Positions 51,626 through 55,031 of a DNA stretch of 60,886 bases are shown here, piece after piece. The position numbers and the translations under genes are program-made. Under the pieces are notes generated by a model. The model made no database searches, had not been told where the DNA came from, and saw only the letters and a list, made by a program, of their open reading frames with translations. Positions within the stretch are counted from its first letter, which is position 1; every line of letters starts with the position of its first letter. Source of the stretch: Escherichia coli (GTDB lineage Bacteria > Pseudomonadota > Gammaproteobacteria > Enterobacterales > Enterobacteriaceae); the NCBI RefSeq assembly GCF_003334385.1, contig NZ_QOWN01000028.1. One strand, 5' to 3'.

Positions 51626-53728
51626 TTACTCAAATCTCCATGCAATATTCATGCCGACACCATAATTTCGTCCGGGCGAAGGTTCGTAATATCGCCCGTT
51701 TGACTCATTGACAATGACAGAACCAACGTATTCTTTATCGAATAAATTATCGACACGACCAAATAAATCCACAGTTAAATTGTGATAATTGTATTTATAC
51801 CCGGTGAATAAGCCGACGAGAGTATAAGACGGCGCTTTTGCCGTATTTTCATCATCTGCCATAATATCGCCCATATAACGCGCTTCCGTGCCTGCATACC
51901 AACCATCTTCCGGTACATAACCTATCGACGCAAAGCCCATATTACGGGCGATCCCTGGCATCCGATTACCGTTACAATCCTGTTCATTGCAAACATTGCT
52001 GCGATAGGTCGCATCAAGCCAGGTCCAGGACGCGTTTACGCGAAAATCTCCTGCGAAACGTTGATCCCATGCCAGTTCAGCGCCTTGACGACGGGTCTTT
52101 CCGGCATTTTTGTAAGTCGTACGCCCACCGCTACTGCTATCGACAACAATTTCATCATCAGTGTCGGTCTGAAACAATGCGAGACTAAGCAGCCCATCAC
52201 CAATACGCGTTTTACTGCCGATCTCAATTGTATCGTTGGTGGATGGTTTTAAACCTAAGTTCATACCGCTTTGCCCATCAGCACGATAAGACAGCTCATT
52301 AATCGTCGGCGTTTCAAAACCTCGCCCGGCTGCCAGATAGATATTCCAGGCATCGGTCATTGCATATTTTAACGAACCGGCAGGTAGCCATTTATGATAA
52401 CTGGCATCACCGCTGTCATCGCCGTTACCCGGAGTAACGTAATGGTCGTTGGAATCAAACCACACGGAGCTGTAGCGCACGCCAGCATCCAGCGACAGTT
52501 TTTCGCTCAGCTGCCACTGCGTCTGTAAATAGGGATCGATGTTCCACATCAGATTGCGTTCGTCGCGACGCAACTCACCTTTTTGCCCGTACTCCGGCAT
52601 GCCGCTATTCAGGCGGAAGTTATTGTAGCCCTTGCGGTTTTCACTCATGTTTTCGTAGTTCAGGCCGGTAGTGAACGTGACCGGAACGCCCAGTTCACCA
52701 CGGTGTGTCCAGCGGCTGTCTATTCCCTGGTAATGGCGTTGCAGGGTAATCACGCCGCCCGCATGTGACGGGTTAAGTTGTGGTGCCATGGGTATTGACT
52801 GGTACTGGGTCGTTTCTCGCTCTCCGGCATACATCATCACACTCATATCATCCCGCGAACTCAGGCTACGCTCATAGCGCAACCCAGCCTGAGTTTGCTT
52901 GATGGTTTTTCGCGTGTCGTACTGTTCTGCACGAGGCGCTTGTTGTGGATTAGCCTTCCATTCTGCTTTGGTTAGCCCACCTGGGTCATCTGCTTTGATA
53001 TCCACACTATTGAAAATCAGACTTAATTTGCTGGCTTCATCAATGCGTACGCCCAGTTTGGCATTGGCTAAATTTTTCTGTGCGCCACTATGGTCACGAT
53101 AGCCGTGGGTCGTAAAACGCGTGGTTGAGACGGTGTAATCGACATCGCCAGGCTGTGTGCCGTCTCCCGTTGCGCCCGTTGCTTTCAGCCCATAGCGCCA
53201 GCTGCCAAAACTGCCGTAGTAACTACTGGCTTCAATGGTTGGTGGCTGTTGTCCGGTCTGGGTGGTGACATTCATTACCCCACCAGACGCGTTGCCATAC
53301 AGGGCAGAGAAGGGGCCACGCAGCACTTCCACATTTTGCACACTGCTTAAATCGATGTTGGATGTTTGCCCTTGCCCGTCGGGCATGGTGGCGGGAATAC
53401 CGTCCACATACAGGCGAATACCGCGAATACCGTAAGTGGAGCGGGAGCCAAATCCGCGAATCGACAGCTGTAAATCTTGCGCATAGTTCTGCCGGTTTTG
53501 TACCTGCAAACCAGGCACGCCGGTCAGTGATTCGGACAAGTTAATGCGCGGTGTTGCCAGGCGCATCTCCTCGCCATCCACCACGCTTACTGCTGCTGGG
53601 GTATCCAGTTCTGAAACCACCTGCGGTGCGGCACTGACAATCATAGTCTGTTCATCAGCGGCAAAAACAACGGGGGAAAGGACAAGCAGTGCGGGCAAAA
53701 CGGTCTGTCGGACGGAAAAAATCTTCAT
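51626..53728 (-). CDS. yncD: TonB-dependent outer-membrane receptor
   Basis: 700-aa ORF with signal peptide, a TonB-box-like ETMIVSA near the N-terminus, and a C-terminal aromatic residue (..IAWRFE) typical of beta-barrels. Confidence 0.88.
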   Translation of the reverse strand: MKIFSVRQTVLPALLVLSPVVFAADEQTMIVSAAPQVVSELDTPAAVSVVDGEEMRLATPRINLSESLTGVPGLQVQNRQNYAQDLQLSIRGFGSRSTYGIRGIRLYVDGIPATMPDGQGQTSNIDLSSVQNVEVLRGPFSALYGNASGGVMNVTTQTGQQPPTIEASSYYGSFGSWRYGLKATGATGDGTQPGDVDYTVSTTRFTTHGYRDHSGAQKNLANAKLGVRIDEASKLSLIFNSVDIKADDPGGLTKAEWKANPQQAPRAEQYDTRKTIKQTQAGLRYERSLSSRDDMSVMMYAGERETTQYQSIPMAPQLNPSHAGGVITLQRHYQGIDSRWTHRGELGVPVTFTTGLNYENMSENRKGYNNFRLNSGMPEYGQKGELRRDERNLMWNIDPYLQTQWQLSEKLSLDAGVRYSSVWFDSNDHYVTPGNGDDSGDASYHKWLPAGSLKYAMTDAWNIYLAAGRGFETPTINELSYRADGQSGMNLGLKPSTNDTIEIGSKTRIGDGLLSLALFQTDTDDEIVVDSSSGGRTTYKNAGKTRRQGAELAWDQRFAGDFRVNASWTWLDATYRSNVCNEQDCNGNRMPGIARNMGFASIGYVPEDGWYAGTEARYMGDIMADDENTAKAPSYTLVGLFTGYKYNYHNLTVDLFGRVDNLFDKEYVGSVIVNESNGRYYEPSPGRNYGVGMNIAWRFE

Positions 53729-53969
53729 GAAAAAAGCCAGGTTAAGAATGGGAAAACGCCGTCATGGTAATGAAATTGTAAATTTATGGAAAATGAAACG
53801 GCACAATACGTTAAGTAATTGAGAAAATTGTAGTCGTAACGGCAAGAAATGCTCCACATTTGAGAAAATAATGATTACCATTCCCATTTATAACAAGAGC
53901 GTAACGATGATTACGCTTAGCGAAGCATTGTGAAGCAGCAAAAATATCGGTTCATCAAAGGGAGTCGTC

Positions 53970-55031
53970 ATGCATTTACGTCATCTGTTTTCATCGCGCC
54001 TGCGTGGTTCATTACTGTTAGGTTCATTGCTTGTTGTTTCATCATTCAGTACGCAGGCCGCAGAAGAAATGCTGCGTAAAGCGGTAGGTAAAGGTGCCTA
54101 CGAAATGGCTTATAGCCAGCAAGAAAACGCGCTGTGGCTCGCCACTTCGCAAAGCCGCAAACTGGATAAAGGTGGCGTGGTTTATCGTCTTGATCCGGTC
54201 ACTCTGGAAGTGACGCAGGCGATCCATAACGATCTCAAGCCGTTTGGTGCCACCATCAATAACACGACTCAGACGTTGTGGTTTGGTAACACCGTAAACA
54301 GCGCGGTCACGGCGATAGATGCCAAAACGGGCGAAGTGAAAGGCCGTCTGGTGCTGGATGATCGTAAGCGCACGGAAGAGGTGCGCCCGCTGCAACCGCG
54401 TGAGCTGGTAGCTGACGATGCCACGAACACCGTTTACATCAGTGGTATTGGTAAAGAGAGCGTGATTTGGGTCGTTGATGGCGGGAATATCAAACTGAAA
54501 ACCGCCATCCAGAACACCGGTAAAATGAGTACCGGTCTGGCGCTGGATAGCGAAGGCAAACGTCTTTACACCACTAACGCTGACGGCGAATTGATTACCA
54601 TCGACACCGCCGACAATAAAATCCTCAGCCGTAAAAAGCTGCTGGATGACGGCAAAGAGCACTTCTTTATCAACATTAGCCTTGATACCGCCAGGCAGCG
54701 TGCATTTATCACCGATTCTAAAGCCGCAGAAGTGTTAGTGGTCGATACCCGTAATGGCAATATTCTGGCGAAGGTTGCGGCACCGGAATCACTGGCTGTG
54801 CTGTTTAACCCCGCGCGTAATGAAGCCTACGTAACGCATCGTCAGGCAGGTAAAGTCAGTGTGATTGACGCGAAAAGCTATAAAGTGGTGAAAACGTTCG
54901 ATACGCCGACTCATCCAAACAGCCTGGCGCTGTCTGCCGATGGCAAAACGCTGTATGTCAGTGTGAAACAAAAATCCACTAAACAGCAGGAAGCTACCCA
55001 GCCAGACGATGTGATTCGTATTGCGCTGTAA
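53970..55031 (+). CDS. yncE: Secreted beta-propeller (PQQ-like repeat) protein YncE
   Basis: 353-aa ORF with signal peptide; repeated ..LY.T.. / ..V.VID.. blade-like segments. Confidence 0.83.
   Translation: MHLRHLFSSRLRGSLLLGSLLVVSSFSTQAAEEMLRKAVGKGAYEMAYSQQENALWLATSQSRKLDKGGVVYRLDPVTLEVTQAIHNDLKPFGATINNTTQTLWFGNTVNSAVTAIDAKTGEVKGRLVLDDRKRTEEVRPLQPRELVADDATNTVYISGIGKESVIWVVDGGNIKLKTAIQNTGKMSTGLALDSEGKRLYTTNADGELITIDTADNKILSRKKLLDDGKEHFFINISLDTARQRAFITDSKAAEVLVVDTRNGNILAKVAAPESLAVLFNPARNEAYVTHRQAGKVSVIDAKSYKVVKTFDTPTHPNSLALSADGKTLYVSVKQKSTKQQEATQPDDVIRIAL

Follow-up and report, generated by a model that had tools for sequence, protein, structure and literature searches.

Work published between 2022 and 2025 answered the main question surrounding yncD, the substrate of the TonB-dependent outer-membrane receptor that it encodes. 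YncD, renamed PqqU, imports pyrroloquinoline quinone (PQQ; 10.1101/2022.06.07.495086; PMC12124388), a function also described in PMC11658791, and PQQ uptake in vivo in Escherichia coli K-12 depends on both TonB and PqqU (10.1101/2022.06.07.495086; PMC12124388). The gene was reported to be neither Fur-regulated nor iron-induced, and BtuB likewise lies outside Fur control (PMC7193533); the Pseudomonas aeruginosa orthologue of PqqU is expressed constitutively (10.64898/2026.04.27.721047).

The divergent neighbour, yncE, encodes a core-genome periplasmic protein that is a major RyhB target without known activity, and that has been described as a protective (vaccine) antigen of E. coli and as a marker of Salmonella Typhi carriage. 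Fur is bound upstream of yncE (PMC4676285), a fur mutant overproduces YncE (PMC5120174), the gene is induced 16-fold at low iron (PMC8896160), and its control by Fur in vivo is also documented in PMC10164565. Activation by RyhB, and physical interaction with it, are documented by Ribo-seq data and a lacZ fusion (PMC4666370), with RIL-seq and a GFP reporter added in work cited in PMC8896160; CopraRNA placed yncE only 834th.

Here, we describe this pair in a window of 60,886 nucleotides, the whole stretch of E. coli DNA that was analysed (contig NZ_QOWN01000028.1, assembly GCF_003334385.1). The pqqU-yncE locus is an already known E. coli core-genome pair, and in all likelihood it consists of two adjacent, separately controlled single-gene units, the PQQ importer gene pqqU and the Fur- and RyhB-controlled yncE. 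Filing the locus correctly averts a false lead on an unknown iron-uptake system. Three computational results are added that we did not find in the published accounts of yncE consulted: where RyhB would pair with its mRNA, a covarying leader hairpin, and the siderophore-type receptors that adjoin relatives of YncE.

Organization of the locus

The open-reading-frame list places frames of 700 and 353 residues head to head (Table 1), which bears out, in coordinates and identities, the first-pass annotation of a TonB-dependent receptor and a secreted β-propeller protein diverging from a 241-bp region. The gene order annotated across the surrounding 3.9-kb block is mcbR, pqqU, yncE, ansP. Nearly every complete E. 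coli genome has this block (5414 of 5426), and the DNA studied here is 99.9% identical to that of MG1655 over the 3.9 kb compared. At its distal end each gene meets a convergent neighbour, with a hairpin between them that is likely a bidirectional terminator, so that each would form a single-gene unit. A locus survey started from a six-sequence alignment retained 80 loci, all from Enterobacteriaceae; the divergent order is kept in about 66 of the 77 informative loci, and yncE is present at the locus without pqqU in seven Citrobacter genomes. An Rfam scan of positions 51000–56000 (E ≤ 1) matched no family.

Table 1. Coordinates of genes and of observed or predicted elements at the pqqU-yncE locus
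Feature	Position	Strand	Basis or detail
Hairpin ATGCCCGG-CAAATA-CCGGGCAT, likely bidirectional terminator	51596–51617		Between convergent mcbR and pqqU stops; inferred from sequence
pqqU (yncD), TonB-dependent outer-membrane receptor for PQQ, 700 aa	51626–53728	−	ORF, NCBIfam, PDB, RefSeq name pqqU
Putative TonB box TMIVSA, PqqU residues 28–33	53630–53647	−	Read from translation; inferred
PqqU signal peptide, residues 1–23 (...VVFA/ADEQ)	53660–53728	−	Read from translation; inferred from usual AXA cleavage pattern
Divergent intergenic region	53729–53969		241 bp, 37% G+C
pqqU-proximal conserved module with predicted pqqU promoter	53764–53815	−	Phylogenetic footprint, 62 Enterobacteriaceae spacers
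Predicted yncE promoter	53853–53881	+	−35 TCCACA (53853–53858), 17-nt spacer, −10 TACCAT (53876–53881)
Fur box AATAATGATTACCATTCCC	53867–53885		Overlaps predicted yncE −10
7-bp hairpin AGCGTAA-CGATGA-TTACGCT in yncE leader	53898–53917	+	Covariation
RyhB-complementary site GCGAAGCAUUGUGAAGCAG	53920–53938	+	Duplex energy, cofold, conservation
yncE Shine-Dalgarno GGGAG	53960–53964	+	Columns at least 90% conserved
yncE, Sec-exported periplasmic seven-bladed β-propeller, 353 aa	53970–55031	+	Signal peptide residues 1–30 (53970–54059)
Hairpin TTGCCCGGC-ACGTA-GCCGGGCAA followed by TTTT, likely bidirectional terminator	55113–55139		Between convergent yncE and ansP stops; inferred from sequence

PqqU is an importer of PQQ

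The receptor scores 1311.7 bits against the NCBIfam equivalog profile of the TonB-dependent receptor PqqU (NF041535, cut-off 1200), in a match that spans positions 2–676 of the 676 in the profile. It aligns end to end with solved structures, residues 1–700 with apo YncD (PDB 6v81) and residues 24–700 with the PQQ transporter (9c4o), and through this alignment the plug and the 22-strand barrel with its PQQ-binding pocket are recognized. Judged by this match, the substrate of the receptor is PQQ, of which it is a high-affinity importer, with transport in vivo taken from the literature. The first-pass annotation had called the substrate unidentified; the profile score, the solved structures and the papers of 2022–2025 supply it. 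The N-terminus reads as a Sec-type signal peptide (MKIFSVRQTVLPALLVLSPVVFA/ADEQ), and the putative TonB box near it is one that we take to resemble those of BtuB, FhuA and FepA. PqqU binds PQQ at nanomolar concentration, and TonB-ExbBD drives its passage through the 22-strand transporter into the periplasm, where the imported cofactor, which E. coli cannot make, loads the apo-quinoproteins Gcd and YliI.

Two predicted promoter modules in the intergenic region

Comparison of the spacers points to two separate conserved promoter modules, and pqqU is probably transcribed from a promoter of its own. The pqqU-proximal module contains a predicted −35 (TTTTCC, 53793–53788; TTTTCA in most species) and, after an 18-nt spacer, a predicted −10 (TACCAT, 53769–53764; TAACAT in most species) about 35 nt 5′ of the ATG, together with the conserved upstream blocks CGGCACA and CGTTAA. 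Across species, no promoter-like position recurs more often on the strand of pqqU, and in E. coli the match is weak (7/12). A by-eye check of the module for PmrA, CRP, PhoB and GntR-type motifs gave half-sites only. No Fur box overlies the predicted pqqU promoter; the sole Fur box lies 139–157 bp upstream of the pqqU ATG, some 95–120 bp upstream of the predicted −10. Transcription of pqqU from this promoter would show no iron response.

On the other side of the spacer, the predicted yncE promoter occupies a position shared by 42 of the 62 species, with a −10 that reads TACTAT in most species; in E. coli it matches at 8 of 12 positions, under the threshold of a generic promoter scan. Both GCTCCACATT and the −10 fall in columns that are at least 90% conserved among the 62 spacers. 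The Fur box overlaps this predicted core promoter. It agrees with GATAATGATAATCATTATC at 15 of 19 positions on the minus strand and 14 of 19 on the plus strand, is the top match among the ~121,700 positions of the 60.9-kb window, and scores at a level that 5000 dinucleotide shuffles of the spacer attained in 0.14% of cases (P ~0.0014). Among 79 upstream regions from Enterobacteriaceae, most carry an orthologous box roughly at position −100 relative to the yncE ATG, also at loci without pqqU, including those of Citrobacter. In the presence of iron, Fur-Fe2+ bound at 53867–53885 would occlude the yncE −10; in its absence, the promoter would be freed. The search for a Fur box that had been proposed as a check was thus positive, and the suggestion that the pair is possibly iron-responsive holds for yncE, given the box and the published control by Fur and RyhB, but not for pqqU (PMC7193533).

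The predicted yncE leader: covarying hairpin and complementarity to RyhB

The 7-bp hairpin is the sole stable element in the yncE leader. Compensatory changes are present at all seven of its pairs, 89.5% of the cells are paired versus 34–47% when the partners are slid, and the covariation score was reached by none of 500 shuffles; RNAalifold independently gives the same helix. The count of G-U cells (25) against A-C cells (8) favours a structure of the yncE-sense RNA.

Complementarity to RyhB, whose sequence was verified, was scored by 22-nt window scans and by cofolding with shuffled controls. The site listed in Table 1 would form a duplex of −20.1 kcal/mol with the RyhB core, an energy that is not unique, since 0.2% of the windows along the whole 60.9-kb sequence reach it. 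Net cofold binding of the leader to RyhB is −15.2 kcal/mol versus −6.8 ± 2.1 in shuffled leaders (n = 100, none as low). A predicted site of −15 kcal/mol or lower is found at −44 to −56 in 75 of 79 Enterobacteriaceae leaders, with a mean best energy across leaders of −22.0 versus −13.0 when shuffled, a conserved complementarity to the RyhB core that fits a RyhB target mRNA. The duplex of the full leader with full-length RyhB falls at the 42nd percentile of controls, such long duplexes being meaningless.

RyhB would pair with nucleotides 53920–53938 of a predicted leader of ~80 nt, just 3′ of the conserved hairpin, and pairing would raise the level and the translation of yncE mRNA. Folding of the leader gave no structure masking the ribosome-binding site, and for this reason RyhB may act by stabilizing the mRNA or by relieving repression by Hfq. 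The site and the neighbouring hairpin, mapped in silico, offer defined targets for compensatory mutagenesis.

YncE and its neighbourhoods in other lineages

YncE begins with a Sec-type signal peptide (MHLRHLFSSRLRGSLLLGSLLVVSSFSTQA/AEEM, by reading the sequence) and scores 561 bits against the NCBIfam profile of the seven-bladed β-propeller YncE (NF052280, cut-off 400); residues 1–353 align to PDB 3vgz, 3vh0 and 7seu. The second-best NCBIfam match is a YVTN-type propeller family, which shares repeats with YncE and whose name is used for 7seu; membership of YncE in that family is ruled out by a score of 65.3 bits versus a cut-off of 287.3. Among homologues taken from 50%-identity representatives, the conserved residues track the blade repeat, not an active site. 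A fold search returns only generic propellers, and no ligand site is evident from residue conservation or fold comparison.

More distant contexts were collected protein by protein in 12 look-ups; three fell on contigs too short to be of use, which left nine informative. Outside Enterobacteriaceae, YncE orthologues or homologues adjoin siderophore-type TonB-dependent receptors in five of these nine contexts, and in the other four no receptor lies next door. The receptors are CirA/IrgA-like at loci L083, L084/85 and L089/90, FhuE at L092, and a FecR-coupled FauA/FhuE-like receptor at L093. Upstream Fur-like boxes match at 16/19 (L083), 14/19 (L089/90), 14/19 (L092) and 13/19 (L082) positions. 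None of the receptors next to these distant YncE orthologues is PqqU (45.7 bits or no match against the cut-off of 1200). In L082, gluconate 2-dehydrogenase genes lie ~3.3 kb from the YncE orthologue. No DNA-uptake genes were found in the neighbourhoods examined. The first-pass description of receptor and propeller as a common layout is sound in the sense that TonB-dependent receptors repeatedly accompany propellers of the YncE family in other lineages.

Because elsewhere its orthologues share operons, preceded by Fur-like boxes, with receptors of siderophore type, YncE is most likely a periplasmic accessory factor, for cargo binding or processing, in iron-regulated TonB-dependent uptake and not in PQQ uptake. 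More specifically, and only tentatively, YncE might bind, hand over or process a ferric siderophore or its breakdown product after catecholate- or hydroxamate-type receptors, in which case its place beside a PQQ receptor would be a historical accident or would reflect a connection of iron mobilization with PQQ/gluconate metabolism. These operons indicate which substrates and mutants to try. If true, this would assign a role to a protein that ranks, within E. coli, among those of unknown function most strongly induced through Fur and RyhB.

Are pqqU and yncE one system?

The first-pass annotation took the pair for a co-regulated uptake system. That YncD and YncE form a single iron-responsive system, in which YncE receives the cargo of YncD, is quite improbable and largely refuted by published data. 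The conserved divergent adjacency could reflect a functional link, the Fur box lies within the shared spacer, YncE-family genes stand beside TonB-dependent receptors elsewhere, YncE is labelled PQQ-binding in some databases (10.1101/2022.06.07.495086), and MAPS with tagged RyhB recovered yncD mRNA. However, a yncE deletion strain is like the wild type in PQQ-dependent growth (10.1101/2022.06.07.495086), pqqU is reported not to follow iron and its P. aeruginosa orthologue to be constitutive, the Fur box overlaps the predicted −10 of yncE alone, the receptors near distant YncE orthologues are of other kinds, and yncE persists with its Fur box where pqqU is absent. Separate promoter modules and the retention of yncE without pqqU thus speak against a receptor and periplasmic partner working as one. 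A coupling at the RNA level, through a second pqqU promoter within the yncE leader, would produce a pqqU transcript whose long 5′ UTR runs antisense to promoter and leader of yncE, and the two transcripts would interfere or pair. A minus-strand promoter-like match is present (−35 TTCACA, 53934–53929; −10 AATCAT, 53912–53907), the hairpin would fold on the opposite strand too, and yncD/yncE is among the head-to-head pairs whose co-purification with RyhB in MAPS was attributed to overlapping UTRs. This coupling is nevertheless unlikely: the second promoter-like site recurs in no more than about 10 of the 62 species, the G-U bias favours the yncE-sense RNA, and the transcript would have to cross the box occupied by Fur although pqqU is reported to be iron-independent (PMC7193533).

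Two further proposals concern YncE itself. Hantke and Friz suggested (10.1101/2022.06.07.495086) that it acts in the periplasm as a gluconolactonase, or as some other enzyme that follows PQQ-dependent glucose dehydrogenase, and clears gluconolactone once PqqU supplies PQQ, which would suit the adjacency to pqqU and the gluconate 2-dehydrogenase genes of L082. The best Pfam repeat match to the SMP-30/gluconolactonase family SGL is weak, the i-E values being insignificant for SGL (PF08450, 0.017–0.69) as for Lactonase (PF10282, 1.5–6.2); the generic fold matches and blade-repeat conservation, a control by Fur and RyhB without obvious logic for a lactonase, and the presence of bona fide YncE orthologues in siderophore-type receptor operons all count against the proposal, to which we assign little probability. 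Binding of DNA in the periplasm or outside the cell, with neighbourhood and iron control incidental, would accord with published crystal work in which single-stranded DNA is bound to YncE (cited in 10.1101/2022.06.07.495086 and PMC5120174; PDB 3vh0) and with the occurrence of YncE in culture supernatants and vesicles (PMC5120174). It is highly improbable in view of neighbourhoods that feature TonB-dependent receptors behind Fur-like boxes and not DNA-uptake genes, and a basic propeller face that binds DNA in vitro need not do so physiologically. Two separately controlled genes, one for PQQ import and one for an iron-regulated periplasmic protein, accommodate these observations best.

Comparison with known systems

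PqqU resembles BtuB, a TonB-dependent transporter for a non-iron cofactor that scavenges a scarce compound the cell cannot make. The btuB leader carries a cobalamin riboswitch that controls btuB; in contrast, the predicted pqqU leader is only ~30 nt long, and the pqqU-yncE region holds no Rfam family. AztD-type metallochaperones, periplasmic β-propellers that serve metal uptake, provide a functional analogy for the role proposed for YncE, but the match is partial (23 bits versus a cut-off of 400) and no metal site emerged for YncE in this analysis. In shiA mRNA, RyhB disrupts a fold that sequesters the ribosome-binding site and so activates the message, whereas folding of the yncE leader gave no counterpart. 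Like yncE, cirA is Fur-repressed and RyhB-activated, with pairing in the 5′ leader. The nearest relatives of both genes are those of E. coli K-12: YncE (3vgz, 3vh0, 7seu) is a full-length match whose Fur box and RyhB dependence were already published, and PqqU (6v81, 9c4o) is a full-length match with identical flanking genes and no difference of substance.

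Organization of the pqqU–yncE locus

The TonB-dependent receptor gene pqqU (formerly yncD) and the β-propeller gene yncE are transcribed divergently from a 241-bp spacer (37% G+C), and the first-pass annotation, which had described this layout, matches the ORF list in both arrangement and coordinates. The locus is already known; that description of it is correct and its interpretation is outdated. Of 5426 complete E. coli genomes, 5414 carry the 3.9-kb block, annotated mcbR / pqqU / yncE / ansP; over a longer stretch, K-12 MG1655 reads mnaT, curA, mcbR, pqqU, yncE, ansP, yncG. 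Convergent genes and G+C-rich hairpins close the far side of each gene, and pqqU and yncE are therefore each monocistronic.

Features of the pqqU–yncE locus (window coordinates)
Feature	Coordinates	Strand	Description	Basis
pqqU ORF	51626..53728	minus	700 aa	ORF list
pqqU–yncE spacer	53729..53969			
yncE ORF	53970..55031	plus	353 aa	ORF list
G+C-rich hairpin, far side of pqqU	51596-51617		with convergent gene	
pqqU-proximal conserved island	53764-53815			62-spacer alignment
Predicted pqqU promoter	-10 at 53769-53764	minus	cross-species form TTTTCA, 17-18 nt, TAACAT	consensus search per species
yncE-proximal conserved island	53845-53888		GCTCCACATT then Fur box	62-spacer alignment
Fur box	53867-53885			Fur scan
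Predicted yncE promoter	-10 at 53876-53881	plus	TCCACA, 17 nt, TAC(T/C)AT	consensus search per species
Hairpin in yncE leader	53898-53917		7 bp; downstream of predicted start (about 53888)	alignment
Minus-strand promoter-like site	53907-53934	minus	TTCACA, 16 nt, AATCAT	
RyhB-complementary block	53920-53938		GCGAAGCAUUGUGAAGCAG; 3 nt beyond hairpin; complementary to RyhB core, conserved	
G+C-rich hairpin, far side of yncE	55113-55139		with convergent gene	
Fur-like palindrome, ansP–yncG spacer	56715-56733		GATAGTTATCACCATTATT	Fur scan

The two proteins

The receptor scores 1311.7 bits on the NCBIfam PqqU equivalog model (NF041535; cut-off 1200) and falls far under the cut-off on all siderophore, haem and B12 receptor equivalogs in the NCBIfam profile search. 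Its residues 1–700 align to PDB 6v81 (YncD) and residues 24–700 to PDB 9c4o (a pyrroloquinoline quinone transporter). The protein is PqqU, and its function is settled by the literature: growth of PTS-negative E. coli on glucose at 1 nM PQQ needs YncD and TonB, and YncD has been renamed PqqU (10.1101/2022.06.07.495086); high-affinity binding of PQQ and a PQQ-bound cryo-EM structure have also been reported (PMC12124388). The substrate, which the first-pass annotation had called unidentified, is PQQ according to both publications. Judging from the translation, PqqU would carry a signal peptide ending VFA/ADEQ (cleavage between A and A) and a putative TonB box, TMIVSA.

The propeller protein reaches 561 bits on the NCBIfam YncE model (NF052280; cut-off 400), which identifies it as YncE, and aligns over residues 1–353 to PDB 3vgz, 3vh0 and 7seu. 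It bears a Sec signal peptide and is reported to be periplasmic, occurring also in supernatants and vesicles (PMC5120174). Membership of TIGR03866 was ruled out (65 bits versus 287), as was membership of the lactonase / SGL Pfam families by Pfam profile search; apart from 3vgz, a fold search returned just generic seven-bladed propellers.

Fur control of yncE

Each 19-mer of the window was scored, on either strand, for its match to the Fur consensus GATAATGATAATCATTATC. The first-pass annotation had suggested looking for an intergenic Fur box, and the top match of the whole window is one, with 15/19 positions matching (minus strand; 14/19 for the plus strand). When the spacer was shuffled 5000 times with dinucleotides preserved, just 0.14% of the shuffles reached 15/19. 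A palindrome in the ansP–yncG spacer, 14/19 on both strands, is one of six second-best matches. A genome scan gave 80 Enterobacteriaceae loci (YncE identity 72–98%), 79 of them with upstream regions of testable length, and the box GnGAATrGTAATCATTAtt lies ~100 bp 5′ of the yncE ATG in most of these 79.

When 62 full spacers were aligned, two conserved islands emerged with unalignable sequence in between. Promoters were predicted by a consensus search in each species, projected to window coordinates, which gave one dominant position per strand; the position for yncE is present in 42 of the 62 species, and the E. coli version of the pqqU promoter reads TTTTCC, 18 nt, TACCAT. If the predicted positions are right, the Fur box lies over the −10 and spacer of yncE, the classical repression geometry, and ~95–120 bp upstream of the pqqU −10, beyond that core promoter. 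These predictions agree with published data: Fur bound upstream of yncE (PMC4676285), both Fur iModulons include yncE (PMC10164565), and a fur mutant overproduces YncE (PMC5120174), while yncD showed no Fur regulation and no iron induction (PMC7193533) and P. aeruginosa pqqU was unresponsive to PQQ, carbon source and iron (10.64898/2026.04.27.721047). The proposal of an iron-responsive pair thus holds for yncE, through its Fur box and published Fur control, but not for pqqU.

The pqqU-proximal module contains blocks left unexplained by the predicted promoter, namely TGTAAA within the promoter spacer and, on the upstream side of the −35, CGGCACA and CGTTAA, together with an E. coli direct repeat, ATGGTAATGAAA / ATGGAAAATGAAA, 22 bp apart. 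By eye, the module has merely half-site likeness to PmrA or CRP motifs, and no regulator of pqqU is reported in the literature.

A conserved hairpin and RyhB-complementary site in the yncE leader

The hairpin in the yncE leader, the predicted 5′ UTR, has compensatory changes at 7/7 pairs across 34 Enterobacteriaceae species. Paired cells amount to 89.5%, versus 34–47% with the partners slid by 1–3 columns; the covariation score was reached by none of 500 shuffles, and RNAalifold predicts the same helix unprompted. The excess of G-U over A-C cells (25 versus 8) favours the yncE-sense RNA. It is the sole stable structure of the leader, the rest of which folds worse than shuffled sequence. Its loop is conserved (CnATGA), and it stands immediately 5′ of the RyhB site; candidate roles are a 5′ stabiliser and an Hfq or RNase E determinant.

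Both E. coli genomes and the Rfam family RF00057 confirmed the RyhB sequence used. The local duplex with the leader has an energy of −20.1 kcal/mol, and the full cofold a net −15.2 kcal/mol, versus −6.8 ± 2.1 for shuffled sequence (n = 100, none as low). The site occurs at −44 to −56 in 75 of 79 Enterobacteriaceae leaders, with a mean energy of −22.0 versus −13.0 shuffled, the E. coli site often being weaker than the others. Duplex energy by itself does not single the site out, since 0.2% of windows across the 60.9 kb attain it; the case for the site lies in its position, its conservation and published biology. RyhB boosts yncE translation and mRNA (PMC4666370); by RIL-seq yncE is a major RyhB partner, and its 16-fold induction in low iron includes a RyhB share of about 3-fold (PMC8896160). 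CopraRNA had placed yncE only 834th (PMC7154689), and no description of the pairing site turned up in the RyhB/yncE literature examined. Because the yncE ribosome-binding site is not sequestered, RyhB would act by stabilising the mRNA or by lifting Hfq repression, not by an anti-antisense mechanism.

A minus-strand promoter-like site within the leader is directed at pqqU, overlapping both the RyhB site and the loop of the hairpin. Only about 10 of 62 species have it, but it might account for the published co-purification of yncD with RyhB.

One uptake system or two

The divergent pair is kept in about 66 of 77 informative Enterobacteriaceae loci, and the first-pass annotation had read it as a single co-regulated uptake system. 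Against this reading, the conserved promoter modules are separate; seven Citrobacter loci keep yncE and its Fur box and lack pqqU; and deleting yncE leaves PQQ-dependent growth and acid formation as in the parent strain (10.1101/2022.06.07.495086). On present evidence, pqqU and yncE have a spacer in common, but neither regulator nor phenotype. PqqU is a cofactor-scavenging receptor, independent of iron, and yncE is an iron-starvation gene under Fur control at its promoter and RyhB control in its leader.

Among the pqqU-less Citrobacter loci, mcbR lies directly upstream of yncE in three (L008, L018, L019) and is missing as well in four (L011, L012, L016, L023), a pattern suggestive of at least two deletions. 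Four further loci have a partial pqqU match alone, the best match being the C-terminal part of PqqU (residues 523–700 in L004, from Escherichia albertii; 320–700 in L020; 414–700 in L043; 409–700 in L064); they may be pseudogenes or genes broken by insertions.

YncE beside siderophore-type receptors outside Enterobacteriaceae

Roughly 2,100 YncE homologues reach E ≤ 1e-10. For twelve representatives of 50%-identity clusters the surrounding contig was looked up, and nine of these yielded a usable neighbourhood. Bona fide YncE orthologues at three loci (L083, L084/85, L089/90; 404–476 bits on NF052280, cut-off 400) are co-directional with a TonB-dependent receptor of CirA/IrgA/PRK13513 type across a 15–85 bp gap, the order at L083 being esterase, receptor, YncE. 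At L092 a YncE-like gene (295 bits) is divergent from an FhuE equivalog (844 bits versus 666), and at L093 another (299 bits) is last in a FecR–STN-receptor operon. None of the receptors at these five loci is PqqU, and the other four contexts (L082, L086, L094, L097) have no receptor neighbour. By our own estimate, a few per cent of genes would neighbour a receptor by chance, so that five of nine is a clear excess, in a small sample. Fur-like boxes stand 5′ of the units at L083 (16/19), L089/90 (14/19) and L092 (14/19), and L082 has one of 13/19 with the enterobacterial motif.

The receptor-less orthologues at L082 (8873–10108 within the locus) and L086 (7043–8254) adjoin an SbmA/BacA-type inner-membrane transporter gene, and gluconate 2-dehydrogenase subunit genes lie ~3.3 kb downstream at L082. 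The L086 orthologue has 48% identity, and its upstream region (5707–5924) is just 10% G+C, indicating an extremely AT-rich host genome.

Since the family recurs in iron-regulated siderophore-receptor operons, our best-supported guess is that YncE is an accessory to TonB-dependent iron uptake, a role that we rank above the gluconolactonase, PQQ-binding and DNA-binding proposals.
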